Source of the DNA: an uncultured Micavibrio sp.
GTDB taxonomy: Bacteria; Pseudomonadota; Alphaproteobacteria; Micavibrionales; UBA2020
Direction of reading: 5' to 3'
Length of the DNA: 64,000 nucleotides
NCBI GenBank assembly: GCA_964534445.1
Contig: CAZHOE010000001.1
Location: 38,493 to 102,492 of the forward strand
The position numbers and the translations under genes are program-made. The notes below the pieces were generated by a model. It was not told where the DNA came from, ran no database searches, and saw only the letters and a program-made list of their open reading frames with translations. Of the stretch, positions 4,801-62,546 are shown one piece after another (positions within the stretch are counted from its first letter, which is position 1; each line of letters opens with the position of its first letter).

Positions 4801-6432
4801 TTAAAGATTGCTGAAGATCTGGCGGCTTTGGGTATTGGGGCATCGCCGCTGTTTCGCGCTCAAATGGCTATTGCAGCCGCAGCCGTCCATCGTGACGCCG
4901 CAAGCGAGGAAAAAATAAAGGATGCGCATTACGGCGTTCCGGCATCGCAGCTTGCGGATTTATTGCACGAAGCCGGCTTTCATACGCTCGAGAAAGATTT
5001 TATAGAGGCTGCCTGGGCATCGTCAGATGCGCCGCCGTCTATAGGGCTGAACAGGCTTGGTGTTCATACGGGGCTTCAGGCCATGCAGCGCGCCCAGAGA
5101 ATAACAGCGTTGGCCGGTATGCTTGCGCGCGACGGGGAATTTGATCTGGCTGAACGTGCTGTAAAAAGCATCATCAATCCAGCGGCTGTTCTGCATGTCA
5201 GAGATACAAATTTTTCGGCCTATTTTTATCAGCAAAAAACATTACATGACATTGCTATTTCAGCGTTCCAGAGCGGGAAAAAAGAGCTGGCACTTGATAT
5301 TATCACCGCTGACTTATCGTATGCGCCCTATCAGGCCGCGGCCTATTTTGAAATAGCGCGCGCATATATCAGGGACGGCCAGAAAGAGGAAGCTAAACAA
5401 TATTACGATACCGGCTACGATCTATCTTCCTCTTTCGGCGCGGCGGTGGGGAGTCCCATGATTGATCCGGAAGGGGTGGCAGTCGAAGGATGGGTGGCGC
5501 GTGCTGCGGTTGAGGCCGAATTGGGGCTGCCAGAGCGATATGAGCAAACGCTATCCTACGCAAGGCATGCTTTAAGCCTGTCGCAAAACGATATTCAGCG
5601 TGGCAAGCTTGCTTCGGTTGTCGATAGAATTATGCAGCTAACGTCCACAAAAAACGGAAAAGAGCCAGCGCAAAGTCTTGACGATTTCATTGAGAGCTTG
5701 CGCGTAAGGGATGATCTGAACTCGACCTCGGTTGTGCGGCAGGCTGCCGAGAAATATTTGATGGAGGGAGATAGCGATAGGGCGCGTGCCTTGGCAATGT
5801 ATGGGTTTCGCAATATAGATCGTTATCCTCAGTCAAAAACCAAGGCGCATCTTTTGCGGCCTTTTGTTAGTATTATTGCGCGTACAGAAGCGCGCATGAG
5901 CGAAGAGACGCAAAGCAAAATCGAAGAAATTCTTAAGACCTATCCACCAGATAACACCAAGCAAAGCCCTGATATCAAACCGGCGGCGATAGATTTCGTA
6001 GAGGAAGGGCGTATTGCCTATAAGGAGTTAAAAAAACGTGCAGCGCTGGATAATGCGCCTCCAAATGAAGGGGATGTGTTGTCTCAGCTTCAGAAAAGTG
6101 GGGCTCTCATCCCCGGAGCTGCGAGCGACTATGCCAGAGTATGGATAGAGAATGCTGTGAAAAAGTACACGCAAAAAAATCCTGATGTAGATATCAAAGT
6201 CTCGGATTTTTTGAATGAAGGTCCGACGGGTAGATTGTGGACGCCTGATAATAGAGATTTCTGGCTTGTGAAAAGGGAGATCGTTCTTCCTACTCAGGTA
6301 CCGGGCTTTTCTGCCTATCTGGTGGTGCCGGCCGATGTCCCTCGGCCTAAAGGGCGACGTCATAATGCAACTATTCTTTACTTGTCGGACTTTACATGCG
6401 AGGGAAATTTTCCGCCATTCTGTAAATACTAG
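1831..6432 (+). CDS. giant secreted pentapeptide-repeat / TPR-like helical protein (1533 aa)
   Basis: The ATG overlaps the upstream stop (ATGA). Signal peptide ends ..APKAHA. TPR-like helices are followed by a ~240-aa pentapeptide tract (ADFSGADFSGARLNGVKFENVVLRGADFTNA..), the cap FDCKTQFPPGFKP, and ~1000 aa of helical sequence with no motif I recognise. Confidence 0.75.
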   Translation: MRYGFMRLIVFSIIIGLSLSFAPKAHALSCFFLSCSQKLIQSDLVFKGRAVFNGNTTPEMQDEYSKNRGDNSKGVRALPNAYTDFEIQTLYKGAPHDKIRIFYEVRRAGFIAGEIEVRPYPEGEETVIYASVQGGFYTTSRGYCSRCEGPQELEVIKARYDAIEDLIRAMPKAPEFYLKKIDLYEANKDFEASLRTYKRLFEAAPEMTQKNDMMLSFGRSLFLSRRYEEAINVLERLKSDGEALSYLQKSKLYAGQGDDLVGQKLQMSGAELNGLTIRDADFSGADFSGARLNGVKFENVVLRGADFTNAIMQVEFSGSDLTGAKFAGAKIKGKITDSKFDNASLTGAEVDLNEAGGSSFKAADFTSGKLYISDCRGHKDWRGNDFRQTNFTDATVSGLRESKTEGANFTNTNFYANKCMSQNQGVDLSGRKLDNTAFDLGDYTGASFKGASLRGATFKGANLTDVDFSGADLSGARFEVSSYSSAGLVKLEGANFTGAKTDGVFWQGSSFDCKTQFPPGFKPEDHQMQTKDRSCDLAATKNPGVVHYDAERLRSGYVTVCNGDYHADCIYGFLASFYSMPKSGFRREELLSFAQSFLDAGYPRLAETIALGKIGGIALSQKSLDPAFFADWLPIMEQVENSREAGANTKEMPDAASFLVGDKRTADARLAEAAKRALDAGDFDQALRYARKIGDKEFNQAILEWGNKQEADAHESRISYGPRLALQSQAQLLIAIEKYHQGQDTSATIKGLIEDIENDKPRNQHEKIFAAARGLAGIHSANPALMVYAHLLTGNTQKAWDIYTVIKTGRHTEGRLPLLSAMADYYARYPDEAGSKKLTEEIHAIARESLALRGSFIHPGAEKLFHESLFNILGTLKSGPMIKEVFSIVGNYQKPVLDAIVSLYAAEAFVKAGDIKSAFAHFEDFRKAVVAESATAQEQGTLSWFLTLGAQDGEALTKGKGGFKLEDKEVGSFILSVAMSGASQQDKVKALKIAEDLAALGIGASPLFRAQMAIAAAAVHRDAASEEKIKDAHYGVPASQLADLLHEAGFHTLEKDFIEAAWASSDAPPSIGLNRLGVHTGLQAMQRAQRITALAGMLARDGEFDLAERAVKSIINPAAVLHVRDTNFSAYFYQQKTLHDIAISAFQSGKKELALDIITADLSYAPYQAAAYFEIARAYIRDGQKEEAKQYYDTGYDLSSSFGAAVGSPMIDPEGVAVEGWVARAAVEAELGLPERYEQTLSYARHALSLSQNDIQRGKLASVVDRIMQLTSTKNGKEPAQSLDDFIESLRVRDDLNSTSVVRQAAEKYLMEGDSDRARALAMYGFRNIDRYPQSKTKAHLLRPFVSIIARTEARMSEETQSKIEEILKTYPPDNTKQSPDIKPAAIDFVEEGRIAYKELKKRAALDNAPPNEGDVLSQLQKSGALIPGAASDYARVWIENAVKKYTQKNPDVDIKVSDFLNEGPTGRLWTPDNRDFWLVKREIVLPTQVPGFSAYLVVPADVPRPKGRRHNATILYLSDFTCEGNFPPFCKY

Positions 6433-33286: not shown

Positions 33287-33973
33287 ATGACAAGCGTATC
33301 TGCATCTGGCGCAGGAAACGCCTCATTGATCCAGCAGATGCTGCAGCAAAGATTCCAGCAAGCTGATACCGACAGTAATGGCGGTCTTAGCCTAGCAGAA
33401 TTTCAAGCTGCAGCTCCGCAGGGGGCAGGGGATGCATCTGCATCCAGTAAAGCTCCCGATCCTTCCAAAATCTTTGAGAAAATGGACTCCAACGGAGATG
33501 GATCTGTTTCCCAAGATGAGTTCAAGACTGCCTTCGAGCAATTTAAGACAGAGTCTAAGGCTGCTCTGCTCAGCGCTCAAGAACAGTCTGGAATGGCTTC
33601 TCTTGATGAACTATTCGAAAATGCTGATACTGACGATGACGGCAGTATCAGTGAAGACGAGTTCAAAGCAGCAGCGCCTAAAGGCCCTCCTCCAGGGCCG
33701 CCTCCAGGTGCTAATGCAGAATCTCAAGAGACTTCCGACCTTTCTAGCCTCTTTGAGGCGATGGACGTTAATGCCGACGGGTTTGTCACTGAAGATGAAC
33801 TGATGGCTGCTTTGGAAAAACAAAGTGAAAGTAGCGGCGAGGCTTCAGAAGAGGATCAAAAAGATACAGCTCTTTTGAATGCCCTTAAGAAGGCATCCGA
33901 TCTCTATCAATCTCTGCTCCAGCAAAAAGAAGAAGCTTCACAGGAAGTTTCCACTGACGCGGTCTTCGCTTAA
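33287..33973 (+). CDS. four-EF-hand calcium-binding protein
   Basis: The ATG follows AAGGAG. Loops DTDSNGGLSLAEF, DSNGDGSVSQDEF, DTDDDGSISEDEF and DVNADGFVTEDEL. Confidence 0.85.
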   Translation: MTSVSASGAGNASLIQQMLQQRFQQADTDSNGGLSLAEFQAAAPQGAGDASASSKAPDPSKIFEKMDSNGDGSVSQDEFKTAFEQFKTESKAALLSAQEQSGMASLDELFENADTDDDGSISEDEFKAAAPKGPPPGPPPGANAESQETSDLSSLFEAMDVNADGFVTEDELMAALEKQSESSGEASEEDQKDTALLNALKKASDLYQSLLQQKEEASQEVSTDAVFA

Positions 33974-34292: not shown

Positions 34293-34742
34293 ATGTCTAA
34301 TAAAGAAATCTACAAGCTCGACCGTAAAAAAGGCATTTATCTGAAGCAGACAGCCGCAAAAGGGCGCGGCGTATTTTGCGTCAGCGATATTGAAGAGGGG
34401 GAGATCATCGAGATGTCACCCGCCATCCTTCTGGACGATAAGGAAACGGTGCATGCCGATAAAACCATTTTGTATGATTACAAATTTAAGATCAGCACGC
34501 TTTCAAATAGCCAGCGCGCGCTGTTTCATATCGAAGACCCGAAGAAGAGCTGCTGCATTGTCATGGGGGTTATGTCCTTTTGTAACCATAGCGAAAATCC
34601 TAACGCGGATATTTTCTGGGAGGAAGATGAAGGCAGTATCTACCACTTTCTGGAAGCTACACGCCGGATTCCAAAAAACACCGAAATATGTACAAACTAT
34701 GGCAGGGGCTGGTTTGCAAAGCGCAAGCAAGTCCGCAAGTAA
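34293..34742 (+). CDS. SET-domain protein (putative lysine methyltransferase)
   Basis: GRGVFCVSDIEEGEII, FCNHSENPN and EICTNYG motifs in SET order. Confidence 0.8.
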   Translation: MSNKEIYKLDRKKGIYLKQTAAKGRGVFCVSDIEEGEIIEMSPAILLDDKETVHADKTILYDYKFKISTLSNSQRALFHIEDPKKSCCIVMGVMSFCNHSENPNADIFWEEDEGSIYHFLEATRRIPKNTEICTNYGRGWFAKRKQVRK

Positions 34743-34819: not shown

Positions 34820-36490
34820 TTACGACCAATTCTTCCGTTTCGAAGTGCGCCCAATGCCCGGATTAAAGCAGTTGCAGGGGTCTATTTCTTTGTAAAATTT
34901 TTGCAAGGCGGGTTTGGCGGTGTAGAGGTGGCCGACATTGTGCTCGGCGGGGTATTCGGCGCCTTTCTGATCCAGCAGATTGCACATGCTATGTTCGATT
35001 TTCCTGCAATCATAGCCTTTTTTGACGATGTAATCCTGATGGAAAACGTGACAGAAAAAATGCCCGTAATAAAGTTTGACGGCAATCTTTTGGTCAATAT
35101 CTGCGGGCAGCCTTTCGACCCAATCCGTCTCGTTGCGTTTTAAGGCGATATCGAGGGCAATGATATCCTCCACTTCTTTTGGATACAGCGCGCGATAGCG
35201 TACGGCGGCGGCAGCGGCGGCAAAGCGGTGCAGGAAGGCCTTCTTTGCCTCTGCCCCCTCGCATTCAAAGAAAGCGCCGCTGGCAGAACCTGCGAAAAAA
35301 TCTTTGAGAAAACCGCGCGTTTCCTCGACGCCTGCGCCGGCTGTTTTGAGCAGCAGGTGGTGTTCAAAGCGCGCGCGAAAATCCTTCATCCGTTTCGGCA
35401 GATGGGCGGGGAATAACCGCGCCAGCCCTTGCAAAAAACGGTCGGATAAATTGGCCGGCAGCAAGGCATCCAGTTTGCTCTTCAAGCTGAAGAAGAGGGG
35501 CATGCGATCTGTGCCCAGCAGGTGTAGAGCCAGAAAAACATCCTTGCCATAGGTTTCGGCTATATCGAAGGCATCGCGGTGCAGGTATTCGGCCGACACG
35601 GGCAGCGATTTAAAACGGGTCAGGACGTGACGGCGCACACGGGTCAAATCATCGGGATCGTTCGTGCCGATATAAAAGACTTTCGTTTGCTCTTCCTTCG
35701 GGAAGGTATCGAGCCGCGCGGCAAAAAGAATGACCTTGCCTGCACAGCCCGATGCTTCGTAAAGCCTGCGCGGGTCGGCATTAAAACGGGCAGGCGTATC
35801 GGCATCGACATCGCGGACATGGTTTTGATAGTCCGGGTCGGAGGCAAGACCCGCGGCGTCCTCAATATGGCTGTCGATGTGGTCGTGCGCCTCAAGACGC
35901 TTTAGCATTTCTTCAGGCGTGGTGCCAAGCGCGATCCCGAGATGATTGACAAGCCGCAGCGTGCCATCCGCCGTGACTTGTGCAAAAAGGCAAAGCTGCG
36001 TATAGGCTGGCCCCCGCTGCAGTAAAGCGCCCCCTGAATTATTGCAGATACCGCCGAAAACAGAGGCACCGATGCAGGAAGATCCGATCACCGAATGCGG
36101 TTCGCGCCCCAGTGGCGCAAGTGTTTTTTCCAGCCGGTCCAGCGTGGTGCCCGGAAAGCAGATGACTTGTTTGCCGTTTTGGATGACCTGTACTTTGTTC
36201 ATCCGCAGGGTACTGATGATGACGATATCGCGGTCGTAATCATCGCCATCCGGCGTTGATCCGCCGGTAAGGCCGGTATTGGCCGCTTGCATGATGACGA
36301 TTTTTTGCGCGGCGACGCAGGCTTTCAAAATCTGCCATTGCTCCAGCAGCGTGCCGGGTCTGGCGACTGCCAAAACCTTGCCGCGGCCAAACCTGTAACC
36401 GGTCGCATAGCGGCGTGTTTGGCTTTCTTTTGTCAGCACGTATTTATCGCCGATGAGGTTTTTGAGGGTATCAATAAAATCGGCGCTCAC
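34820..36490 (-). CDS. dld: quinone-dependent D-lactate dehydrogenase
   Basis: Long collinear similarity to E. coli Dld, e.g. IMQAANTGLTGGSTP, HSVIGSSCIGASVFGGICNNSGGALLQRGPAYT, YPAEHNVGHLY, NPGIGRTSKRKNW. Confidence 0.9.
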   Translation of the reverse strand: MSADFIDTLKNLIGDKYVLTKESQTRRYATGYRFGRGKVLAVARPGTLLEQWQILKACVAAQKIVIMQAANTGLTGGSTPDGDDYDRDIVIISTLRMNKVQVIQNGKQVICFPGTTLDRLEKTLAPLGREPHSVIGSSCIGASVFGGICNNSGGALLQRGPAYTQLCLFAQVTADGTLRLVNHLGIALGTTPEEMLKRLEAHDHIDSHIEDAAGLASDPDYQNHVRDVDADTPARFNADPRRLYEASGCAGKVILFAARLDTFPKEEQTKVFYIGTNDPDDLTRVRRHVLTRFKSLPVSAEYLHRDAFDIAETYGKDVFLALHLLGTDRMPLFFSLKSKLDALLPANLSDRFLQGLARLFPAHLPKRMKDFRARFEHHLLLKTAGAGVEETRGFLKDFFAGSASGAFFECEGAEAKKAFLHRFAAAAAAVRYRALYPKEVEDIIALDIALKRNETDWVERLPADIDQKIAVKLYYGHFFCHVFHQDYIVKKGYDCRKIEHSMCNLLDQKGAEYPAEHNVGHLYTAKPALQKFYKEIDPCNCFNPGIGRTSKRKNWS

Positions 36491-37486
36491 TTAAACCTCG
36501 TTTCCGACCTTGCGAGCGTGCAAGGGCTTATCGAGATTGACGCCGCGGGCAAGGCCTGCGGCCACCAGAATATTCCAGCCGGCCATCATTTGCAGGTAAG
36601 CATCGAACCCGCCGAGCACAGGAATTTTAATGGTGGGAAAGGGCGTGTCGAAAGAGGCAATCGCAATAACGCGAATACCTGCCTTTACCGACAGGATATC
36701 GCGGTATTTTTCGATTTCTTCCTGAAAGGGTTCGATCAGGATAAGGGTTTCATCCCGATGCATGACTTCCTCTATACCGTGCAGGGCATAGGTGCCTTCA
36801 AGGAAAACGCTTTTCTGGCGGGCAATTTCGTTCGTCTTGAGTGTGAGTTCTTCCGCGACGCCGTTATTGCGGCCGGCAAAATAGAGAAGCGGGGCGCCGG
36901 CGACCGCATCGATCATTTCCGGCGCCAGCGTGGCTGACAGAATTTCCGCGCAATAATCCGCCGCCTGATTTTGATGCTGCCATTCAGGACCGTTTAACAG
37001 AGATTGCAGGATGAGTGCCTGCTCGATAACGCTTTTTGTTGCGGCTATTGCTTTTTCAGCACCGCAAGACAAAAGGCGGCTGTCATCCGATAACGCGACA
37101 ACGGGGCTGCCCGCCGCTGCCGTGATGCTATAGCGGGGAATATCCGCCTGTTTTAGTTTTTCAAACAGGGAGACCAGTTCTCGCGTGCGTCCGCTGTTAC
37201 TGCTGCCAACGACGATGCAGTCGTCGAGATTATATTCTGCCGCCTGCCGCGCGCCTTCGGTAAAAATATGCCAGTCCATGTTTTGATGTCGTGCGCGGTC
37301 GATGGTGTTTTTCGCAGGGAAAATCCGGCTGGAGCCTTCGCCTGTCAGCAGCAGCCCTTTTTTGTTTTTGATGGCCGCTGACCAGTCCCGCGTTTGCGTG
37401 CTGTCAAAACGGCGCATTATGCCGGGTGTTTCCAGCATTTCATCAATCAGGGCATAGGGCGATCCGGATAACATGGCAGGCTCCAT
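36491..37486 (-). CDS. double-SIS sugar-phosphate isomerase/deaminase (GlmS-C / AgaS / FrlB-like)
   Basis: SIS signatures GEGSSRI, SNSGRTRE and AEKAIAATKS. The stop abuts the dld start. Confidence 0.8.
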   Translation of the reverse strand: MEPAMLSGSPYALIDEMLETPGIMRRFDSTQTRDWSAAIKNKKGLLLTGEGSSRIFPAKNTIDRARHQNMDWHIFTEGARQAAEYNLDDCIVVGSSNSGRTRELVSLFEKLKQADIPRYSITAAAGSPVVALSDDSRLLSCGAEKAIAATKSVIEQALILQSLLNGPEWQHQNQAADYCAEILSATLAPEMIDAVAGAPLLYFAGRNNGVAEELTLKTNEIARQKSVFLEGTYALHGIEEVMHRDETLILIEPFQEEIEKYRDILSVKAGIRVIAIASFDTPFPTIKIPVLGGFDAYLQMMAGWNILVAAGLARGVNLDKPLHARKVGNEV

Positions 37487-37599
37487 TTCTATCGGGATTT
37501 TACGGGTTTAGAGCGGGGAACGCAAAGGACTGTTTTCATGTCCCGTCTTGGAGTAATCTGGGGGAGGCTTATATGGTCGGTTTACCTTGGGTTCTGTAA

Positions 37600-38445
37600 A
37601 TGAAAATATGTATCGTTTCTCCACATCTCGATGATGCGCTGCTGTCCTGCGGTATTCTGATGCAGCGCGAAAAAGCGCTGGCCAACGATATCCTTGTCTT
37701 GAATATCTTTACGGCAGGCACAAATGCGGCCAACCGGCGCGTGGAGGAACAGAACGCGATCGGTAAAGCGGGTGCGCAGCCGTTTTTTTTGGATGAGCTT
37801 GACGCGCCTGACCGCAACCCGATCTATTGGTCGAATGAGAAGCTTTTTTTCGGCGCGCTCGAAGACGTTCCTGAAGCCTATATTTCAAAAGTAGAAGACC
37901 GCCTGAACGCATTTTTTGCCGAACACCAGATCGACGTGGCGTATTTCCCCTTGGGCGCGGGCAACCATATCGACCATCGCATTACCTTTAAAGTGGGCAT
38001 GAGCATCAAGAATGTGCCCGTCAAGTTCTATGAGGACCGGCCCTATATCCTCTGGCCGGGTGTGCTGCAAGGGCGCATGCAGCAGATCGGCAGCGATGCC
38101 GCTCTGCCGGTTGTTACCGAGCAGATGATGCGCGACAGCCTTGGCTCCTACCATTACATGAAGCATTTCGTGCCCGAAGGGAAATATCAAGAAGCCTGTC
38201 TGCCGCTTTATTTTCAGGCTTTGAATCAGAAATCATCGAATATTTTGAAATCCGACAGTGAAACGCTTGTGGCAACGGAAAGCGAGCTCAGGCACCTTTA
38301 CGATTGCCTGTCGCTGTATGACAGTCAGATGAAGCTGATTTATGCCGATTATGATACCTTTGTCAAAGATAGTCTGCATTCGGAACACGCGCAGTCGGGG
38401 CGCGAGATTTATGCCGAACGGTCATGGACATTCAAACAGGTTTGA
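37600..38445 (+). CDS. PIG-L/LmbE-family N-deacetylase
   Basis: MKICIVSPHLDDALLSCG and GNHIDH motifs. Confidence 0.8.
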   Translation: MKICIVSPHLDDALLSCGILMQREKALANDILVLNIFTAGTNAANRRVEEQNAIGKAGAQPFFLDELDAPDRNPIYWSNEKLFFGALEDVPEAYISKVEDRLNAFFAEHQIDVAYFPLGAGNHIDHRITFKVGMSIKNVPVKFYEDRPYILWPGVLQGRMQQIGSDAALPVVTEQMMRDSLGSYHYMKHFVPEGKYQEACLPLYFQALNQKSSNILKSDSETLVATESELRHLYDCLSLYDSQMKLIYADYDTFVKDSLHSEHAQSGREIYAERSWTFKQV

Positions 38446-39988
38446 TTTTCTTTTTAAGGCTATCCACGGTCATCAAGACGACAGACTGTGCGGGTGCCAT
38501 ATGCTGTATTTCTTCGAACAATTGATAACAAATATCCGCATACGAAAATGCGGTTATGTTCTGGTGATGCAAAAGATATTCCACATAACGGATCGCGCGA
38601 TCGATCAGTTTTTTATTGCTGGGTTTGACCCATGTCATGATGTTGCTCTCGAAACGGCCGCAGCGCCCCATAATCAGCGTTGAATGCATATTGAGCGCTA
38701 TTTTGAGGAAAAGATGCTCGAAAAAAGGATGCAGGCCTTTTACATTCACGCGGTGAGTGCAATTGTTCAGCGTAAAAACAATATCATCTCCCTGCCGCTC
38801 GATCATGAAGCGGTAAAGTTTTTGCGGGGCGATAAGCGTTTCGCGCTGCTGCCGCGCTTGTGCCGAAAAATCGAACCCCATCAGTCTTTTGCGCCCGGCG
38901 ATGGCCTTCAATTCATCCCATTCAATCGTGAGCGGATCCCGCAGCAAAATCTCGTGCCAGGCCTCGGCAGCATCGGATGTCTGCGGCAAACAGAAATAGG
39001 ATAAAGAAGGTGTACGTGCGGGATTATTCTGGTTTTCAAAACCCAAGAGAGAGAAGGTCGGTGCGCGTTCCGTTGTATCTGTCAGTATCGTGATGCCGTA
39101 GTCATTCGTTTCATAAAGAACAAAATCCCCTGCGGTGTAAATTCTCGATTCTTCTTCGATGAAAGGGGCGAGGAAGGAAAAATCGGTTTTTTGCACGAAG
39201 TCGATCAGGTCCGTGATGGCCGGCGCGGCAATGCCGGTATCCGCTGCCCGTAACAGCGCGGCACCGGCACCGAGCATCAGCACCGTGCTGGCCTGCAAGC
39301 GCGTACTGCCGGAGAGTGCCATCGGCCCGACATAAAGACAGATTTTCTCGATGGCAGGGTTTTCAAGCACAAGGCGCGACCGTTCGACCTGTTCGTGCAG
39401 AACTTCATCGGGGTTGCAGTAAAGAAAGAAGGGCTTGCGGGATGATATACGCGTCGCTTCCTCTGTCGCACCAATCACAGAGGGCGTTTCTCCACCTTCT
39501 GTACAACTTACGAGGAGATCATGGCTGCCGAAACCGATTTCCCGCAGCTGTCTGGCACCAAATTCGGGGTGGTCTTCGAAATTTTCGATCGAGTGCACCA
39601 GCGCAAGATCTCCGCCGCTCATGAAACCCAAAACGTTATCGGCTTCGGGGCGGCCTCGGTGCAAATGGCGCCAGATATATTCGATGGCCATGGAAAGCCG
39701 GCCCGTCGCGCCGCAGCCATAGAAAAAAACACGGTTTCCGGTGCGCAGCGTGTCACGTATGGCCGCTTCCAGCCGCTCCAGCTCGGGAGCACGCGCGTCA
39801 ACGGCAGCAAGCACGCCGAGATCAATGTCCTTTAGAATATCGAGTGCGGCGGGAATGTCCCGTCTGGACAGATCAGCCAGCTCAAATGTCAGGGGATGCC
39901 GTTGCTCGGTCGGTAGGGTACCCAGTTGAAACTGATAGGCGACCTTCAGAAATTCTTCGGCTTTAAGCCGTGCCTCATTTTGCATCAT
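38432..39988 (-). CDS. MurQ/GCKR-family SIS protein (etherase-like core plus ~220-aa C-terminal extension)
   Basis: LPTEQRHP.., GCGATGRLS, GFMSGGDLALVHSIENFED, TEGGETPSV and GSTRLQAS are collinear with MurQ SIS signatures. At 518 aa it is much longer than a typical ~300-aa MurQ. Confidence 0.7.
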   Translation of the reverse strand: MMQNEARLKAEEFLKVAYQFQLGTLPTEQRHPLTFELADLSRRDIPAALDILKDIDLGVLAAVDARAPELERLEAAIRDTLRTGNRVFFYGCGATGRLSMAIEYIWRHLHRGRPEADNVLGFMSGGDLALVHSIENFEDHPEFGARQLREIGFGSHDLLVSCTEGGETPSVIGATEEATRISSRKPFFLYCNPDEVLHEQVERSRLVLENPAIEKICLYVGPMALSGSTRLQASTVLMLGAGAALLRAADTGIAAPAITDLIDFVQKTDFSFLAPFIEEESRIYTAGDFVLYETNDYGITILTDTTERAPTFSLLGFENQNNPARTPSLSYFCLPQTSDAAEAWHEILLRDPLTIEWDELKAIAGRKRLMGFDFSAQARQQRETLIAPQKLYRFMIERQGDDIVFTLNNCTHRVNVKGLHPFFEHLFLKIALNMHSTLIMGRCGRFESNIMTWVKPSNKKLIDRAIRYVEYLLHHQNITAFSYADICYQLFEEIQHMAPAQSVVLMTVDSLKKKIKPV

Positions 39989-41108: not shown

Positions 41109-41420
41109 ATGGAGCGGAAAATGAAAAAACTATCAGAACTGGAGCGGCAATTTTTTATGGCGGCCCAAAAACCTGATCTGGACACTCTCAAGCTTTGTAT
41201 TCAAAAGGGCGTAGATGTCGGTGTGCAGGATGACCAAGGTTTAACAGCGCTAGACCACGCAAAATCTTTGTCAGACCCGCAGGATGTGATTGTCAAGCAA
41301 GGGGCGATAGGTACAAGAAATGCCGGTGGCACATACACTGTACTCTCCTCCAAACAATCCCAGCGTGAACAGGTTATTGCGGTGTTGGAAAAAGCACGCC
41401 GGCAGCCTAAAGGCCCATAA
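41109..41420 (+). CDS. small ankyrin-repeat protein
   Basis: LKLCIQKGVDVGVQDDQGLTALDHAKSL fits the ankyrin consensus. Confidence 0.65.
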   Translation: MERKMKKLSELERQFFMAAQKPDLDTLKLCIQKGVDVGVQDDQGLTALDHAKSLSDPQDVIVKQGAIGTRNAGGTYTVLSSKQSQREQVIAVLEKARRQPKGP

Positions 41421-41675: not shown

Positions 41676-43652
41676 TTATTTGTCCGGTTTATCTTTTGCG
41701 GCGAGTTTGGCGGGTTTGTATTTGCGCAAGGCTTCTTTTATTTTTGCGCCGACAAAAATCTGCGGGTTTGAGGCAGGGGTGATGTTTTGCGTTTTCTCGC
41801 GTCTTTCGATTTCCGCTTTTGCCAGCACAAAGGCCTCTTCAATATCCGTCGTTTCTTCCAGTCCCACCTTGAAATAAGACTCGGTGAAATAGGTCAGGTT
41901 ATATTCGTCTGAACAGCCAAAAGAGGTTCTGTCCTTGGCGGCCGCGGCGATGATCATCGTATTGTCGTCCTGCAAATGCGGAATGAACGTGCCGCTATGG
42001 CAGGCGGAAATGATGATGATCTTGTTCTTGATTCCGCTGTCGTCGAGGATTTTTTTTAAGCGCGCCGGCGAGATGCTCAGCTGGCTGAAGTCATGACCAA
42101 GGCCGACAGAAAGGCCTGCTTCGGGGTCTCCGTGGCTGGTCATGAAAATCAAGGCGATATCTTCGTCAGGTTGCATGTAATCGGCAGACAGTTTTTGCAA
42201 ATAGGCATTGAGGTTCGATGTATTGGCAAGTGCGGTGGTTTTGACGGTGTCTTCGTTACTGATCATTTGAATCACGTTGGTGATGCCCAGTTTTTCCTGC
42301 AACCGCTTGCCGACGTAATGCGCCTCCCGCATAAAAATATCCTGATAGCCATAGGGGGCAAGAGCGACGGCGTAAATATCCGTCGCGCCCTTCTTGGATG
42401 GTTTTATGCTCTGTAGCGCCTTTTCCCGCAAGTCAGCCTGCATCGAGAACATTTCTTCGTTTGTCATTTCGTCGAGGATCGAGGCTTGAGCATCATCGGG
42501 CTGGTATACGTAGTATATGGGGCTGAAGTGCACGGTATTGATAAAAGCATAGATCAAAATAGCGCCTGCGGCGCCCGCAACGGCAGGCTTCAACAGGGTC
42601 TGTATACCAAAGAGCGTCTTGCATAGGGACAGCATCGCCATAAACGTCCAGACGGTGAAGATGCCCTTTGTAAGGCTATAGCCATCGTGCGCGTAGAACG
42701 CATCCGGAAAAACAGTGCGGGCGATGGTATAGGGCACGAACAGGAAATAAAAACTGTTCAAAAACGTAACGGCGATGTCCAGTGCGCGATTGGTTTTGTA
42801 GATATGGCTGCTGATGATATAGGCCATCACGAATGTGACGGCGGAGAGGATCGTAATGTACAAATACCAGTAGTATGTGAGTTCTCCGCCCCATCCGTGC
42901 GTCCAAAGTTCGACCAGCCCCTGTGAGGCAAAGAAGGTAATGATAATCGCCACCAGCGCGTGGCTGGAGGCGATGACGCGTTTTTGCGACGGCACAAAAA
43001 CCGCTTGCCGCAAGCCGCAGAGCAAGTTGTGAAAGTACCACTTGCTGAAGGGGATTTGGGGTGTGGTGTCTGCAGCGGTATCCGCCTGCGCAATTTTTGT
43101 ATTCCCCCAAGGCGGCAGCGGGTTGGCCGCGATCCAGTATTCGAGCGCTTGCGTATAAAACTGCGTTGCAGCTGTCTCGTTCTCGAAAAATCGCTTGGGG
43201 ATCAAAAAGGCGGCTGAGGTATCTATATATAGCAAAATCGTATGCTTATCTTCTTCAACGCTGTGAATGGCAGACCATTTAAAGAAAGTTTTGTCTTTGT
43301 CGCAGGTCTGATGCAAGCCTTCCGCATTGATGAGAATGTCTCTGGGGCGGCGCAGTGATCCATTCTCGTCGTTGTATTCGATAGGTTTTATTTTTGTAAT
43401 TATTTTAAGAAAAAGAACGAGGGTGAAGACGAAAATCCAAGGCGTTGACAGGCCAAGTAGCACGGGCGGAAATTTACTATAAAAGTCTGTTTCGCCGATC
43501 AGGAAAAGGAGCGCTGCCATAAAGATTGTTGTCAGCACGGCAGCAAGGCTTTGTGCGGATGCTGTTTTGCTGCTTTGGCGCGAGATGAGAGGTTCCATCC
43601 CCTTCGTAATGTCTGCCTGACTCATTTCTATATGGACACGCAACTCTTCCAT
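41676..43652 (-). CDS. polytopic membrane protein with C-terminal peptidase C13 (legumain/caspase-like) domain
   Basis: His..Cys dyad context FMTSHGD and IIISACHSG. About 8 TM helices. N-terminal YcxB-like segment (FLIPKRFFENETAATQF). Confidence 0.75.
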   Translation of the reverse strand: MEELRVHIEMSQADITKGMEPLISRQSSKTASAQSLAAVLTTIFMAALLFLIGETDFYSKFPPVLLGLSTPWIFVFTLVLFLKIITKIKPIEYNDENGSLRRPRDILINAEGLHQTCDKDKTFFKWSAIHSVEEDKHTILLYIDTSAAFLIPKRFFENETAATQFYTQALEYWIAANPLPPWGNTKIAQADTAADTTPQIPFSKWYFHNLLCGLRQAVFVPSQKRVIASSHALVAIIITFFASQGLVELWTHGWGGELTYYWYLYITILSAVTFVMAYIISSHIYKTNRALDIAVTFLNSFYFLFVPYTIARTVFPDAFYAHDGYSLTKGIFTVWTFMAMLSLCKTLFGIQTLLKPAVAGAAGAILIYAFINTVHFSPIYYVYQPDDAQASILDEMTNEEMFSMQADLREKALQSIKPSKKGATDIYAVALAPYGYQDIFMREAHYVGKRLQEKLGITNVIQMISNEDTVKTTALANTSNLNAYLQKLSADYMQPDEDIALIFMTSHGDPEAGLSVGLGHDFSQLSISPARLKKILDDSGIKNKIIIISACHSGTFIPHLQDDNTMIIAAAAKDRTSFGCSDEYNLTYFTESYFKVGLEETTDIEEAFVLAKAEIERREKTQNITPASNPQIFVGAKIKEALRKYKPAKLAAKDKPDK

Positions 43653-44790: not shown

Positions 44791-44827
44791 AAAGGAGAGG
44801 CGTTTTAATGCCTCTCCTTTTTTTTTT
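44791..44827. terminator. hairpin terminator, 11-bp stem flanked by A-run and T-run
   Basis: AAAGGAGAGGC/GCCTCTCCTTT stem followed by T7. Abuts the stop of the 44826-45329 gene. Confidence 0.6.
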
Positions 44828-45329
44828 AGCGGATATCGCGGGTATTCGTCGTGGAAATATTCAGTTCCGACAACGTATTGGTATCCAGTCTGCCGGTAAC
44901 CGACAGATTGCGTTCTTGCTGGAATTCGCGCACTGCGCTTGCCGTTTCGGGACCCCAGACACCGTCAACCGAAATGGAATGACCGGCATCACGCAAACGA
45001 CGCTGTACCAGTTGCAGCTGGCCGGCGCTCAGATTGTTCCTTTGTTGGTGAGCGGTTGATCCCCAGCGGATATTGCTGTTGGTATTATCGACGCGATCCG
45101 CCCGATATGGGCGCTGATCGGTATTATACTGCGCGCCTTGATGGTGGTAATCTCGGCTTCGGATTTGGTTTCTGTTGTTTTGGTTCATCTCGTCCGCAGG
45201 GGTTCGGTATTCCAGTTGCTGGTCATTGCTTCTGGAATAGGAATTGTAATCCGCCTGCGCGGCGGCGGAAGAAAGGCACAATGCTGCTGCGGTGGCGGAT
45301 GTCATCATAAATGTTTTAATGTTTTTCAT
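44826..45329 (-). CDS. secreted protein with peptidoglycan-binding (PG_binding_1) domain
   Basis: Signal peptide. C-terminal LVQRRLRDAGHSISVDGVWGPETASAVREFQQERNLSVTGRLDTNT. Confidence 0.8.
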   Translation of the reverse strand: MKNIKTFMMTSATAAALCLSSAAAQADYNSYSRSNDQQLEYRTPADEMNQNNRNQIRSRDYHHQGAQYNTDQRPYRADRVDNTNSNIRWGSTAHQQRNNLSAGQLQLVQRRLRDAGHSISVDGVWGPETASAVREFQQERNLSVTGRLDTNTLSELNISTTNTRDIR

Positions 45330-58363: not shown

Positions 58364-60445
58364 ATGAGCGATCATATCAACGTCATTCTTAAACGGTTCG
58401 AGCGCACCTCGGACCAGTTTTTCTCCAAAGGCGAATTCCGCGCCAAGCTGCGGTCGGGCAAAAAGCTGCGCATCAAATACGGCGTGGATGTGACCGCGCC
58501 GACGCTGCACATCGGCCATGCGGTCAACCTGTGGCTGCTCCGCAGTTTGCAAAACATGGGGCACAAGGTGGTTTTCGTCATCGGCGATTTCACCACGCGC
58601 ATCGGCGATCCCGACGGGCGCATGGAAACGCGCCCCGTGATCCCGCAGGACGAGATCGAGCGCAACGCCGAAGAATTCATCAAACAGGCCAAGATGGTCT
58701 TGCGTTTTGATGATCCGGAGCTGCTGGAAATCCGCCGCAATTCCGAATGGCTGGATAAAATGCCGATGCAGGAGTTTATGAGCCTGCTGTCGATTGTGAC
58801 GCATAAACGCCTCTTGTCACGCGATATGTTCCAGCTGCGCATGGCGGCGGAGCAGGATATCTACATGCACGAGATTATATACCCCGTGCTGCAGGGCTAT
58901 GATTCCGTGGCGATTGAATCGGATCTGACGATTATCGGCTCCGACCAGTTGTTCAACGAAATGATGGGCCGCCTGTTTCAGGAACGCCTGGGGCAAAAAC
59001 CGCAAACGATCATCACCACCAAAATCACGGCGGGGATCGACGGCAAGCTGAAACAGTCCAAAAGCATCGGCAATTACATCGGCCTTGCCCATTCGCCGCG
59101 CGATAAATTCGGGCGGGTGATGAGCATCCCCGATGTGCTGATCGAGGAATACTTCCGCATCTACACCGACATCCCGCTCGACGAGATCGACCGGATGAAA
59201 GACCTGTTCAATCACAGCCCGCGGGAAGCCAAGCTGAAGCTCGCCTATGCCATCGTCGGCCGCTATCACGGGCACGATATTGCCGTGGCCGAGCGCGAAT
59301 GGTTCGAACATACGGTTTCCAAGGGGCTCGTGCCGGATGATATTCCGGAACTGGCCATTTTGAACCCGCGTCAGGAATTGCAGGAACTGGTCTTTCAGGC
59401 CCGTCCCGGCAAGAGCAAGAGCGATTCCCGCCGCCTGATCACACAGGGCGCGGTCGAAATCAACGGCGAGAAAAAGCAGGACCCCGAAGAAGAACTGGTT
59501 TTGCGCACCAACGACGTTTTGAAGGTCGGCAAGCGCAACTGGTTCCGTATCGAGATCGTGCATCTGAACGAGCTGGATACCGAACAGCTGTCGATGAAGC
59601 CCATGCGCGTCGAAGACGTGGACATGATCCAGCAGTTTTTGCCGGAATGGGAAATCGTCAAGCACCTGTCGCGGCCGATGCCGGCCAAGGTTATCAGCGA
59701 AGTCGCGCGCGATGTGTTCCGCCGTATCCTGATGCAGCCGGAGCCGAAGGATGACTGGCTGTGGAAAATCTCCGCCAAGCGTGATCCGGATAAAGTCATC
59801 GGCGTGGCGCACCTGCGCCGCGACGGCGATACCGCCAAGCAAAGCCTGTGGATCAACCCGGAGGAAAAAGGCAAGGGCTACGCCAAGGAAGCCATTGCCG
59901 CCGTCACCGTGCAGGCGTTCAATTCGCTGAGCTTTGATAAAATGATTTTCGAAGGCGCGCTGCCGCATGCCGGCGAGCCGCAGGAGCTGGAGATATTGAA
60001 AGAACACTTCATGTTCATGGAGGAAACCTTCCGCAACCGCGAAAATCCGGAAGGCATTTTCGGTTTCACCAAAGACGGGTGGGAGCGCATGAAGGAATGG
60101 TGGCTGAAGCACCGCCCCGATGCCAACCTGCCCAGCAAGCACCGCCGTAACGAAGCGCGTCTGGATAAAATCGAGGATGCACACGAAGAGCGTCTGGAAG
60201 ATATCATGGAACGCTTTGCCGCAAAACGCGAGGTAAAGAAGGAACTGGTGATCGAGGAGCATCTGGAACAAAAACAGGAAGTGATCGCGGAACTGACGAG
60301 CGAGAAAGCGGAGATCGAGGCGGAGCATGAAAAGAAAATGAGCTTTAATGACGCGATGGCCAAAACAGCCGCCCCGCCAAAACGCCCGCCGGTGAAGCTC
60401 AAACTGCCCCAGTTGCAAACGCCCAAACCGCGTGGAAAGACTTAA
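58364..60445 (+). CDS. tyrS: tyrosyl-tRNA synthetase fused to a GNAT-like domain and a charged C-terminal tail
   Basis: HIGH (TLHIGHA), KMSKS variant (KLKQSKS) and S4 domain (SRRLITQGAVEINGEK..WFRIEIV). From ~59566, a domain paralogous to the downstream GNATs (FLPEWEIVKHL, VIGVAHLRRD, KGKGYAKEA). From ~60110, an E/K-rich tail ending KRPPVKLKLPQLQTPKPRGKT. Confidence 0.85.
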   Translation: MSDHINVILKRFERTSDQFFSKGEFRAKLRSGKKLRIKYGVDVTAPTLHIGHAVNLWLLRSLQNMGHKVVFVIGDFTTRIGDPDGRMETRPVIPQDEIERNAEEFIKQAKMVLRFDDPELLEIRRNSEWLDKMPMQEFMSLLSIVTHKRLLSRDMFQLRMAAEQDIYMHEIIYPVLQGYDSVAIESDLTIIGSDQLFNEMMGRLFQERLGQKPQTIITTKITAGIDGKLKQSKSIGNYIGLAHSPRDKFGRVMSIPDVLIEEYFRIYTDIPLDEIDRMKDLFNHSPREAKLKLAYAIVGRYHGHDIAVAEREWFEHTVSKGLVPDDIPELAILNPRQELQELVFQARPGKSKSDSRRLITQGAVEINGEKKQDPEEELVLRTNDVLKVGKRNWFRIEIVHLNELDTEQLSMKPMRVEDVDMIQQFLPEWEIVKHLSRPMPAKVISEVARDVFRRILMQPEPKDDWLWKISAKRDPDKVIGVAHLRRDGDTAKQSLWINPEEKGKGYAKEAIAAVTVQAFNSLSFDKMIFEGALPHAGEPQELEILKEHFMFMEETFRNRENPEGIFGFTKDGWERMKEWWLKHRPDANLPSKHRRNEARLDKIEDAHEERLEDIMERFAAKREVKKELVIEEHLEQKQEVIAELTSEKAEIEAEHEKKMSFNDAMAKTAAPPKRPPVKLKLPQLQTPKPRGKT

Positions 60446-60450
60446 AAGCC

Positions 60451-61038
60451 ATGGCGGATTTGGAAACAGAGCGGCTGGTGCTGCGCCCGATTGTGCGGGC
60501 AGATGCAAAGGCGATCCAGAAACATTTCCCGCATTGGGAGATTGTGAAATATCTGACCAATGCCGTGCCGTGGCCGTATCCCGCCGACGGCGCGGAGAAA
60601 TACATGGATATATATTTGCCCAAGGTGGCGGCGGGTATCGACCATATCTGGGGCATACGGCTGAAGGCGCACCGGGATGATCCGGCGCGCGATGAAGTTA
60701 TCGGCCTTGTGCATTATCATGGCGCGGATCCTGCTGATCCCGCCGATGTGCCGACACGCGGTTTTTGGCTGGCGCAGGATTTTCACGGGCAGGGCTATAT
60801 GACGGAGGCTGTGTTTGCCGTCAATACCTATATCTTCGACGTGCTGGGCGTGGAAAGATTGATCATCAAAAACGCACGCGATAACAAGGGATCGCACCGC
60901 GTGAAGGCCAAAACGGGCGCCGTCTTGCTGGGTGTGGAATCTTCTACCGGTAAATACCTTGGCGATTTTAACGAGCAGGAAATATGGGAGCTGACGGCCG
61001 ATAACTTCCGTCGCGCCAGGGACGGCACCGGAACATGA
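60451..61038 (+). CDS. GNAT-family (RimJ/RimL-like) N-acetyltransferase
   Basis: ETERLVLRP..FPHWEIVKYL..WPYPADGA..QGQGYMTEA. Starts 6 nt after the tyrS stop. Confidence 0.85.
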   Translation: MADLETERLVLRPIVRADAKAIQKHFPHWEIVKYLTNAVPWPYPADGAEKYMDIYLPKVAAGIDHIWGIRLKAHRDDPARDEVIGLVHYHGADPADPADVPTRGFWLAQDFHGQGYMTEAVFAVNTYIFDVLGVERLIIKNARDNKGSHRVKAKTGAVLLGVESSTGKYLGDFNEQEIWELTADNFRRARDGTGT

Positions 61039-61589
61039 ACAAGCTGGATCGCATCGAAACGCAAAGGCTCATCCTGCGCCGCTGGCGGGAGACCGACCGC
61101 GCCCCCTTTGCCGCCATCAATGCCGACCCCAAGGTCATGGAATATTTCAAGACGCCGCTGACCCGCGCCGAAAGCGACAGCTTTATCGACCGTATGGAAG
61201 ACGTGTTCGAGCAAAACGGCTACAGCTTCTGGGCGGTGGAGGAAAAGATCAGCGGCAAGCTGCTCGGCCTTACCGGGCTTGCCCCTGTGATGTTCGATGC
61301 GCCGTTTACGCCGGCGGTAGAGATCGGCTGGCGCATCGCATCCGACAGCTGGGGCAAAGGCTATGCGCCGGAAGCTGCGCGTATGGCCTTCGATATCGGT
61401 TTTCGCTATCTTGATTTGCCGGAGATTGTATCCTTTACCGCCGTCATTAACCAAAAATCCCGCAGCGTGATGGAAAAACTGGGCATGACGCAGGATGTCG
61501 CCGGCAGCTTCGATCACCCGAACCTTCCCGAAGGCCACATGCTCCGCCCCCACGTCCTCTACCGCATGAAAACACCGGCGAAGCATTAG
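61035..61589 (+). CDS. GNAT-family N-acetyltransferase
   Basis: ETQRLILRRW..GWRIASDSWGKGYAPEAA. ATGA overlap with the upstream GNAT. Confidence 0.85.
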   Translation: MNKLDRIETQRLILRRWRETDRAPFAAINADPKVMEYFKTPLTRAESDSFIDRMEDVFEQNGYSFWAVEEKISGKLLGLTGLAPVMFDAPFTPAVEIGWRIASDSWGKGYAPEAARMAFDIGFRYLDLPEIVSFTAVINQKSRSVMEKLGMTQDVAGSFDHPNLPEGHMLRPHVLYRMKTPAKH

Positions 61590-61745
61590 AATCTATTTGA
61601 CAGAAGTCTGGAATAGCGGTACTTTCGTACCCTATCTGCCACTGCCGAAAGTAAAAGCCATGCGACGACCAAAAGGATTGTTTGTTTAACCGCCCGTGCC
61701 TGCACGCGGCTTGTCGCTTTTGCTTTTGTTTTAGGCTTCCCCCAT

Positions 61746-62546
61746 ATGAAACGGATTGAGACCGAACGGCTGGTTTTGCGGCCGCTTGCCATGGCAGACC
61801 ATGCTGCTATCCAAAAACATTTCCCGCATTGGGAAATTGTACAGCATTTATCCGGCCATGCCATCAAATGGCCGTATCCCGCCGATGGTGCGCAAAAATT
61901 TTTGCAAAACATCGCGCTGCCCGCCATGGCGCGCGGCGATGACTGGTATTTCGGCATCACCGAAAAGGGCGGGGATGGCGAGGTGATCGGCGTTGTGCAT
62001 TTGCGCCGTGATACGGCATCGGGCAATCGCGGCGTCTGGCTGGCATCGGCGTATCAGGGCAAGGGCTATATGAAGGAAGCCGTCGCGGCGCTCAACGATT
62101 ACGCCTTTGCCGAACTGGGGTTTGAAAAACTGGTTATCAAGAATGCGGAAGAAAACGTGGCCTCCCGCCGCCTGAAGGAAAAAACCGGCGCGCGGCTTTT
62201 GGAAACACGCCCCGCCAGCCACTACCTTGGCGGCTGCCCCGTGCAGGAGATTTGGGAGCTGACCGCCGCCGATTGGCATGCCTATCGCGCCGCACAAAAG
62301 CTGCTGGCGCAACAAAGCCAGCAAAAACAACCGCATCCGTGGCGTTTGCGCGATGCGGCGACAGTCTTGACGGCGCGGCCCGCAGTGCCTATACAGGGGC
62401 ATTGTCAGCCAAATGCCTATCGGGGGATCCGCCGCGCCTATGTCTTATCGGCGGCCTTTAAAAAATCCCGTACGCGTCCGCTGGTGTGCAAACCCTGTCC
62501 TGCCTATCAGGGTTTCAAACCGGTCAGGATGGCGCAGGCGGGCTGA
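61746..62546 (+). CDS. GNAT-family N-acetyltransferase with an atypical ~85-codon 3' extension
   Basis: ETERLVLRP..FPHWEIVQHL..WPYPADGA..VIGVVHLRRD..QGKGYMKEA. The tail after ~62290 is R/P/C/Q-rich and unlike a GNAT. Confidence 0.75.
   Translation: MKRIETERLVLRPLAMADHAAIQKHFPHWEIVQHLSGHAIKWPYPADGAQKFLQNIALPAMARGDDWYFGITEKGGDGEVIGVVHLRRDTASGNRGVWLASAYQGKGYMKEAVAALNDYAFAELGFEKLVIKNAEENVASRRLKEKTGARLLETRPASHYLGGCPVQEIWELTAADWHAYRAAQKLLAQQSQQKQPHPWRLRDAATVLTARPAVPIQGHCQPNAYRGIRRAYVLSAAFKKSRTRPLVCKPCPAYQGFKPVRMAQAG

Follow-up and report, generated by a model that had tools for sequence, protein, structure and literature searches.

A candidate N-acetylmuramic acid 6-phosphate catabolic locus with a predicted two-repeat MurQ-type protein in an uncultured alphaproteobacterium

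Gene content of the locus

We describe a locus of four genes in a 64,000-nucleotide stretch of DNA (hereafter the window) from contig CAZHOE010000001.1 of an uncultured groundwater alphaproteobacterium, a Micavibrio sp., that may encode a route from the 6-phosphate of N-acetylmuramic acid (MurNAc-6-P) to fructose-6-phosphate and pyruvate by way of non-canonical enzymes. The genes, which we call A, B, C and D (dld), encode a SIS-domain protein related to MurQ and to the glucokinase regulatory protein GKRP, a deacetylase of the PIG-L/LmbE type, a second, double-SIS protein and a D-lactate dehydrogenase. An initial annotation, made from the letters of the sequence, had placed four neighbouring genes here, and open reading frames (ORFs) together with family matches bear this out. 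Chance ORFs can clearly be set aside, given the strong family match of each of the four and the conservation of A, B and C in many other genomes. Their positions in the window, and those of the junctions between them, are as follows.

38432–39988, minus strand: gene A, 518 residues, two-repeat MurQ/GKRP-type SIS protein, putative MurNAc-6-P lactyl etherase (Pfam GKRP_SIS_N)
37600–38445, plus strand: gene B, 281 residues, PIG-L/LmbE zinc deacetylase, putative de-N-acetylase of N-acetylglucosamine 6-phosphate (GlcNAc-6-P) or of MurNAc-6-P (Pfam PIG-L)
36491–37486, minus strand: gene C, 331 residues, double-SIS protein, putative glucosamine 6-phosphate (GlcN-6-P) deaminase/isomerase, NagB-II-like (profile match to NagB-II structures)
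34820–36490, minus strand: gene D (dld), 556 residues, respiratory flavin adenine dinucleotide (FAD) D-lactate dehydrogenase Dld (NF008387, Lact-deh-memb)
38432–38445: 3′ ends of A and B, which converge and overlap by 14 nucleotides (ORF coordinates)
37487–37599: intergenic region between the divergent starts of B and C
36488–36493, minus strand: junction of C and dld, the TAA stop of C directly before the GTG start of dld

Gene B lies on the plus strand, opposite to A, C and dld, and here the initial annotation had misdescribed the placement of the deacetylase. Since B converges on A and diverges from C, the four genes do not form one operon. The same convergent 3′ overlap of A and B is found in about 12 related loci, and wherever a locus holds both B and C, the two diverge. 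The region between these two presumably carries the promoters of both genes; no inverted repeat or operator-like palindrome was found in it. The reported abutment of the C stop and the dld start (36491/36490) is confirmed, with GAGG a few bases 5′ of the GTG. A promoter and terminator scan of the region did not rise above noise, the number of matches being not clearly over that in shuffled controls. An HTH_3 gene lies upstream of A in the window and is not kept in related loci.

Across the 64-kb window, the Pfam gene lists are free of kinase, phosphotransferase system (PTS) and permease genes, and canonical murQ, nagA, nagB and anmK are likewise absent from them. The remark in the initial annotation that no kinase, PTS or permease is visible thus extends to the whole window, and its suggested check for canonical murQ, nagA, nagB and anmK, within the same span, came back empty.

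Architecture and predicted catalytic residues of gene A

Gene A matches the Pfam family GKRP_SIS_N (PF22645) with a score of 40 bits (cutoff 27). Its first SIS domain (SIS-1) and its lid are homologous to the MurQ structure 4s12 (E-value 4e-25), and they align in two separate blocks: MurQ residues 4–203 to A 20–236, and the MurQ lid, residues 205–245, to A 429–469. It follows that an insertion of about 190 residues (237–428) separates the SIS domain from the lid. What had been annotated as an extra C-terminal region of about 220 residues is therefore an internal insertion, with the MurQ lid aligning after it. Residues 241–518 of A align in their turn to the entire MurQ (hhalign probability 98.4, E-value 5e-14), and in this alignment the stretch FVLYETND-YGITILTDTTERAPTFS of A pairs with a stretch of MurQ. 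Judged from these alignments, the insertion is a degenerate second MurQ repeat, which gives A the order SIS-1, SIS-2, lid that is also seen in GKRP.

Structure prediction and profile comparison point the same way. A profile of the A family is collinear with GKRP-type proteins over A 19–315, from SIS-1 through the SIS-2 motif (hhalign E-value 5e-27). The AlphaFold2 model of A (predicted local distance difference test, pLDDT, 81; predicted template modelling score, pTM, 0.85) has GKRP structures as its top Foldseek matches (4bb9, 3w0l and 4ly9, with template modelling scores of 0.57–0.61 over about 600 columns), and MurQ spans only half of this model. The elements of A on which the discussion below relies are these.

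39698–39718, minus strand: SIS-1 phosphate loop GCGATGR, residues 91–97 (alignment to MurQ and GKRP)
39575–39586, minus strand: SIS-1 motif E135-x-F-E138-D139 (alignment to MurQ EGAED)
38705–39280, minus strand: inserted, predicted degenerate second MurQ repeat (SIS-2), residues 237–428 (MurQ aligns on either side)
39053–39082, minus strand: SIS-2 motif T303-D-T-T-E307-R-A-P-T-F312 (hhalign; counterpart of MurQ DASECPPTF)
38588–38704, minus strand: lid-helix motif K429..N..ST..M....R...N.M..V...N.KL.DR..R467 (common to the MurQ C-terminal region)

In Escherichia coli MurQ, we take the catalytic glutamates to be Glu83, in the motif DASECPPTF, and Glu114, in EGAED. Glu138 in SIS-1 of A aligns to Glu114, the second glutamate of EGAED. 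Glu307, in the SIS-2 motif DxxExxPTF, corresponds to MurQ Glu83 and to human GKRP Glu348 (Glu360 in the numbering of 4ly9), which stands in the motif DGVECIHTF. In SIS-1 of A the phosphate loop and E-x-F-E138-D are retained while the DASECPPTF motif is gone; SIS-2 keeps D304-x-x-E307-x-x-P-T-F and no longer has a phosphate loop. Both etherase glutamates are thus predicted to be present in A, divided between the repeats. These are the residues that the initial annotation had singled out for checking, and nothing that it had named as speaking against its proposal was found. The possibility that A is without a counterpart of Glu83, whose position in SIS-1 falls on Ile105 or on Trp106 according to the alignment used, was considered and rejected: the DxxExxPTF motif is in SIS-2, and GKRP is split likewise.

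These elements are highly conserved. The counterparts of the loop GCGATGR are GAGTSGR in MurQ and GCGTSGR in GKRP; across 16 members of the family that are 37–76% identical, residues G91, C92, G93, T95, G96 and R97 do not vary, and A94 is at least 90% conserved. T303, D304, E307, R308, P310, T311 and F312 are likewise invariant in 16 diverse members, and the pair Glu138 and Glu307, invariant in 16 members (37–76% identity), is at least 90% conserved in 136. The SIS-1 motif E135-x-F-E138-D139 shows this same degree of conservation. When SIS-2 is taken by itself, its motif region is matched locally by GKRP (E-value 1.3e-4) and by MurQ (E-value 1.1e-3) in hhalign; a global hhalign of SIS-2 alone gives a meaningless alignment.

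The comparison with known proteins helps to place A. MurQ (EC 4.2.1.126) is a homodimer of about 300 residues per chain with one SIS domain and a C-terminal helical lid, whereas A is a fused two-repeat protein of 518 residues that keeps both glutamates, in separate repeats, and the phosphate loop. MurQ matches GKRP twice, and a D(A/G)VEC(V/I)(P/H)T(Y/F) motif lies in the SIS-2 of GKRP. A set of 19 GKRP-type sequences, drawn from animals, protists and metagenomes, has the ECxxT[FY] motif in SIS-2 only, some 240 residues past the phosphate loop. The eukaryotic GKRP-type etherases of Naegleria gruberi and lancelet, and vertebrate GKRP, have the order SIS-1, SIS-2, lid in common with A, and also its asymmetry, with the phosphate loop and E..ED in SIS-1 and D..E...T[FY] in SIS-2 only. 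Unlike GKRP, A is bacterial, is about 100 residues shorter, has a far more degenerate SIS-2 and has no glucokinase-binding role. The Naegleria and lancelet homologues of GKRP are reported, in part from earlier work, to be efficient MurNAc-6-P etherases, and the regulation of glucokinase by GKRP originated only in jawed vertebrates (bioRxiv 10.64898/2026.05.08.723886).

About 425 clusters at 50% identity match A at an E-value of 1e-30 or lower, and the family is almost wholly uncultured. Its members are named ‘hypothetical’ or ‘SIS domain-containing’ by NCBI and MurQ by JGI. One member, P0124 (849 residues), has a C-terminal extension of about 330 residues with a weak S1/P1-nuclease match below cutoff.

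The deacetylase and the second SIS protein

Gene B scores 41 bits against Pfam PIG-L (PF02585, cutoff 28.2), and 10 out of 10 orthologues are above this cutoff. The motifs SPH9-x-D11-D12 and H123-I-D125-H126 are invariant, which leaves the PIG-L zinc/base site intact. The nearest solved relatives of B are the N-acetylglucosamine (GlcNAc) de-N-acetylases Dbv21 and Orf2* (E-value 4e-10). More broadly, the Pfam domain and the zinc/base motifs of the PIG-L/LmbE proteins (MshB, BshB, Tk-Dac from the chitin pathway of archaea and the teicoplanin-type Orf2*/Dbv21) match those of B, and the C-terminal extension of B, about 130 residues long, resembles Orf2*/Dbv21. To our knowledge, all known PIG-L members de-N-acetylate GlcNAc moieties. 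Those that have been described act on unphosphorylated GlcNAc or on GlcNAc conjugates, and action of B on GlcNAc-6-P or MurNAc-6-P would set it apart from them. From its genomic context and its fusion with A, described below, B may be a GlcNAc-6-P deacetylase with a NagA-like role. The pairing of B with C has a parallel in the Thermococcus Dac and GlmD pathway, in which a PIG-L deacetylase goes together with a SIS-type GlcN-6-P deaminase.

The top PDB profile matches of gene C are the NagB-II structures 7kqa, 8eol and 3hba (E-value about 6e-11). Five residues, E213, K217, E220, H236 and K326, do not vary among 10 orthologues and align to Glu481, Lys485, Glu488, His504 and Lys603 of GlmS (E. 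coli numbering), which we take to be the catalytic residues of that enzyme. The spacing is identical: the His comes 16 residues after the Glu, and the Lys stands 5 residues before the C-terminal end. A phosphate loop SNSGxTxE is also present, and S96-N-S-G-R-T101 is invariant in the 10 orthologues. With these residues in place, C looks like a working GlcN-6-P deaminase/isomerase. A reading of C as being without a catalytic Glu, with Tyr233 of LEGTYxLHG at that position, proved to be a mis-assignment: Glu488 of GlmS sits in LKxxE, which corresponds to E220, and all five residues are there.

In its length (about 330 residues), its double-SIS layout and its catalytic Glu, Lys, Glu, His and C-terminal Lys, C is like NagB-II (Shewanella SO3506, 8eol; Stenotrophomonas, 7kqa) and archaeal GlmD. 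It differs from NagB-II in its low identity and in having invariant motifs of its own, GEGSSRIFPAKN and LEGTYxLHGxEEVM, and on this evidence it belongs to a putative new NagB-II-like subfamily.

Linkage and distribution of the genes

We compared 116 related loci, including 35 from species-representative genomes and 80 from metagenomes, plus several look-ups by exact protein. About 23 of them, all in the alphaproteobacterial branch in which A is at least 64% identical, hold A, B and C side by side. The arrangements found are A> <B C>, <C B> A> and <B C> A>, with short overlaps between neighbours. On three contigs B and A are joined in a single B::A fusion protein, P0092, of 281 + 518 residues.

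The dld gene matches NCBIfam NF008387 at 932 bits (cutoff 391) over residues 3–556, and carries FAD_binding_4 and Lact-deh-memb (Pfam, 2e-135). Its presence beside this cluster is one instance of a wider association. FAD-linked oxidases of the GlcD/Dld-like kind make up 11 of the 201 ORFs that adjoin A and 2 of 712 elsewhere in the 116 loci (Fisher p = 2e-6, uncorrected for phylogeny), and both of the non-adjacent oxidases are Dld genes closing A-B-C-Dld clusters. At least five kinds of dehydrogenase are concerned (Dld, X3, the L021 type, the L111 type and a 972-residue FAD and Fe-S type), and a sixth kind lies 1 kb from A in locus L028. The gene for A and that for the adjoining oxidase often overlap by 1–4 nucleotides, in either gene order (L033, L034, L021). 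This repeated independent recruitment of dehydrogenases is the strongest evidence that we have on the reaction of A: it argues for the release of a D-2-hydroxy acid by A, in the simplest case D-lactate.

Predatory lineages abound among the taxon labels of the carriers (Micavibrio, Bdellovibrionales/Bdellovibrionota, Pseudobdellovibrio, Bacteriovoracaceae, Oligoflexia and Myxococcales), in a sampling of A-family carriers that was driven by sequence patterns. Epibiotic Pseudobdellovibrionaceae have anmK and no recognisable murQ, according to a preprint (PMC11870529). Genes of family A occur in Pseudobdellovibrio metagenome-assembled genomes (L033, L038), and the family is a candidate to fill this murQ gap.

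Some further arrangements around A were also recorded. In 10 loci where A is about 49% identical (L055–L064 and related, e.g. L061:5368–6264), a different PIG-L gene (about 300 residues, Pfam E-value 6e-26) lies 3–5 genes downstream, with SSB, unknown and DUF4251 genes in between; this could be a second, looser link with A or inherited gene order, perhaps of a BshB gene. On a 6.56-Mb contig (L042:5978–11692, protein P0122), A at 49% identity stands between two pairs of ABC permease genes (four BPD_transp_1 matches), with a Peptidase_C15 gene within 8 kb. These permeases are the only hint of a linked uptake system. In five other loci (L008, L010, L011, L014 and L015, e.g. L008:9509–10216) a convergent pyroglutamyl peptidase gene, also Peptidase_C15, lies immediately downstream of A.

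A proposed pathway and its alternatives

We propose that the cluster is a self-contained cytoplasmic route from MurNAc-6-P to fructose-6-phosphate and pyruvate that employs non-canonical enzymes. This is the best of the explanations that we considered, and we hold it to be about as likely as not. MurNAc-6-P would be produced outside the cluster, probably by AnmK or by some other kinase with its gene elsewhere. Gene A, as a fused pseudo-dimer of MurQ, would remove the D-lactyl ether to give GlcNAc-6-P and D-lactate, using a single active site made up of the SIS-1 phosphate loop and Glu138 together with Glu307 of SIS-2. B would act in place of NagA, giving GlcN-6-P and acetate, and C in place of NagB, giving fructose-6-phosphate and ammonium. 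Dld, which would be translationally coupled to C, would convert the D-lactate to pyruvate.

This scheme runs parallel to the E. coli AnmK/MurP-MurQ-NagA-NagB route: the products proposed for A are identical (GlcNAc-6-P and D-lactate), and deacetylation and deamination would then follow likewise. It departs from that route in having a PIG-L protein for NagA, which has an amidohydrolase fold, and a SIS protein for NagB, in adding a D-lactate dehydrogenase and in being without murP and murR. The idea of MurNAc-6-P catabolism goes back to the initial annotation, and the computed features, namely architecture, conservation of catalytic residues, linkage and fusion, speak for it. The substrates of all the enzymes, those of B and C included, the order of the A and B steps and the source of MurNAc-6-P are inferred. 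The parts of that annotation that did not hold are the architecture of A, the strand of B and, as Dld proves to be lineage-specific, a general place for Dld in the scheme.

A number of observations weigh against the proposed route. Gene A is under every curated MurQ cutoff (TIGR00274, 106 versus 302 bits; NF003915, 136 versus 168; NF009222, 112 versus 255), and C reaches 26 bits against the NagB-II equivalog NF046059 (NagB_SO3506), where the cutoff is 430. The Pfam families for the second SIS domain and the C-terminal region of GKRP, PF22198 and PF20741, match neither A nor its relatives, which have only PF22645 and SIS_2; eukaryotic GKRPs carry all three domains (PF22645, PF22198 and PF20741). 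Searched against the PDB with HMMER, a profile built from just SIS-2 has no match, neither MurQ nor GKRP, so the assignment of Glu307 rests on profile-profile alignments and a 10-residue motif, and the AlphaFold2 model has low confidence at residues 305–331, around that same motif. In a limited literature search we found no PIG-L enzyme acting on a 6-phosphorylated sugar.

The genomic context has its own weak points. Among the 116 loci no kinase, transporter, NagZ, amidase or regulator is conserved near A, and in the wider, more distant family A is mostly solitary among housekeeping genes. Dld adjoins C here, as the initial annotation had it, and follows the A-B-C core only in the window and in L004 and L047, its closest relatives (A 84–86% identical). 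There is also a sigma-70-like promoter match (10/12) at 36624–36651 on the minus strand, within the 3′ end of C and about 130 nucleotides upstream of the dld start, so that separate transcription of dld is also possible.

Other readings of the same genes have to be weighed with these points in mind. The order of the first two steps could be reversed, with B converting MurNAc-6-P to muramic acid 6-phosphate and A then yielding GlcN-6-P directly, C and Dld being unchanged. Such an order would suit the position of B upstream of A in the fusion and in co-directional loci (where the overlap is 16 nucleotides), the tolerance of PIG-L enzymes for substituted GlcNAc, and the divergence of A from canonical MurQ. 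However, A is found at 73–78% identity in loci without nearby B and C (L006, L016, L037) and is alone in most of its family, so its substrate is probably independent of B; MurNAc-6-P is the substrate of the GKRP-type etherases that share these motifs; and elimination on a free-amine sugar would yield an enamine prone to deamination. We consider the reversed order unlikely. It is rather unlikely, in our view, that the trio acts on something else altogether, be it a different acetamido-sugar phosphate, such as another O-lactyl or O-carboxyalkyl hexosamine derived from prey or environmental polysaccharide, or an unphosphorylated or anhydro form, with A freeing another D-2-hydroxy acid, or lactate from a source other than MurNAc-6-P. 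That A, B and C all count as being under the curated cutoffs of the named families would fit this, as would the lack of a linked MurNAc-specific kinase or transporter, with one A member among ABC permease genes, and the GlcD-like oxidases next to A could equally be glycolate or D-2-hydroxyglutarate dehydrogenases. Yet the partner in the window is a bona fide D-lactate-specific Dld, the phosphate loops are kept in both A and C, and the abundance of predators among the labels of the carriers (Micavibrio, Bdellovibrionota, Bacteriovoracaceae, Myxococcales) fits peptidoglycan.

The fold closest to A is GKRP and its Pfam match is GKRP_SIS_N, as might be expected if A were a non-catalytic sensor or regulator of sugar phosphates like the vertebrate protein. 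We find this very improbable: both glutamates and the phosphate loop vary little or not at all in a family reaching down to 37% identity, A is tightly operon-coupled to dehydrogenases and fused to a deacetylase, no kinase partner lies near it, and GKRP control of glucokinase dates only from jawed vertebrates. Finally, C could be a deglycase or isomerase like FrlB or AgaS in the degradation of fructosamines (Amadori compounds) or galactosamine, with A and B as unrelated helpers. FrlB-like and AgaS-like structures (8glr, 2a3n) are indeed among the weaker matches of C, at an E-value of about 3e-4, but the NagB-II matches are some 10^7-fold better, no amino-acid transporter or kinase is present, and the existence of A, the PIG-L fusion and the linkage to D-lactate dehydrogenase would all go unexplained. 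Of the readings considered here, this one seems to us the least credible.

Neighbouring genes in the window

The cluster is flanked by genes for eukaryote-like domain proteins: an EF-hand protein (33287–33973, plus strand) and a SET-domain protein (34293–34742, plus) on one side, and an ankyrin-repeat protein (41121–41420, plus) and a 658-residue membrane protein with YcxB and a legumain-like Peptidase_C13 domain (41676–43652, minus) on the other. This repertoire recalls that of host- or prey-associated bacteria. A 167-residue peptidoglycan-binding (PG_binding_1) protein is encoded about 5 kb from the cluster (44826–45329, minus).

Elsewhere in the window, a 693-residue tyrosyl-tRNA synthetase with a C-terminal GNAT domain (58364–60445, plus; tRNA-synt_1b, S4 and Acetyltransf_3) is followed directly by three separate GNAT acetyltransferase genes (60451–62546, plus), an unusual fusion and cluster. 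Near the start of the window, two adjoining genes (221–1834 and 1831–6432, both plus) encode very large proteins with pentapeptide repeats, one of 537 residues and the other of about 1530.

Evolution and implications

The architecture of A also bears on the history of GKRP. Gene A and GKRP have in common the GCG of the phosphate loop, an (M/I)(S/A)GGD motif, a gap-free alignment of SIS-1 to Xenopus GKRP and the same asymmetry of motif loss, and these characters are suggestive of one ancestral fusion. We offer a broader scenario tentatively, as something possible rather than probable. Family A would be the prokaryotic counterpart of GKRP, its sister or its source; MurQ would have been duplicated and unequally fused in bacteria, where the catalytic dyad would also have come to be divided between the repeats, and bacterivorous eukaryotes would later have taken up the fused gene. 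The alphaproteobacterial branch would then have recruited a phosphosugar-specific PIG-L protein and a NagB-II-like deaminase, giving a pathway without NagA and NagB.

As predicted, the chemistry of the cluster is that of the known MurQ-NagA-NagB route, and none of A, B and C is counted as passing the curated thresholds of those families. It is by way of MurQ, NagA and NagB that MurNAc recycling and scavenging are usually annotated; here their steps are apparently carried out by proteins that curated models miss, and predatory or uncultured genomes, e.g. those of epibiotic Pseudobdellovibrionaceae, may wrongly seem unable to use muramic acid. Activity of a PIG-L protein on GlcNAc-6-P or MurNAc-6-P, if confirmed, would add a new specificity to those of its family. 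A fused MurQ from bacteria that is built like GKRP would moreover provide a concrete comparator for the origin of GKRP from an etherase, and would make this question testable with a simple enzyme.

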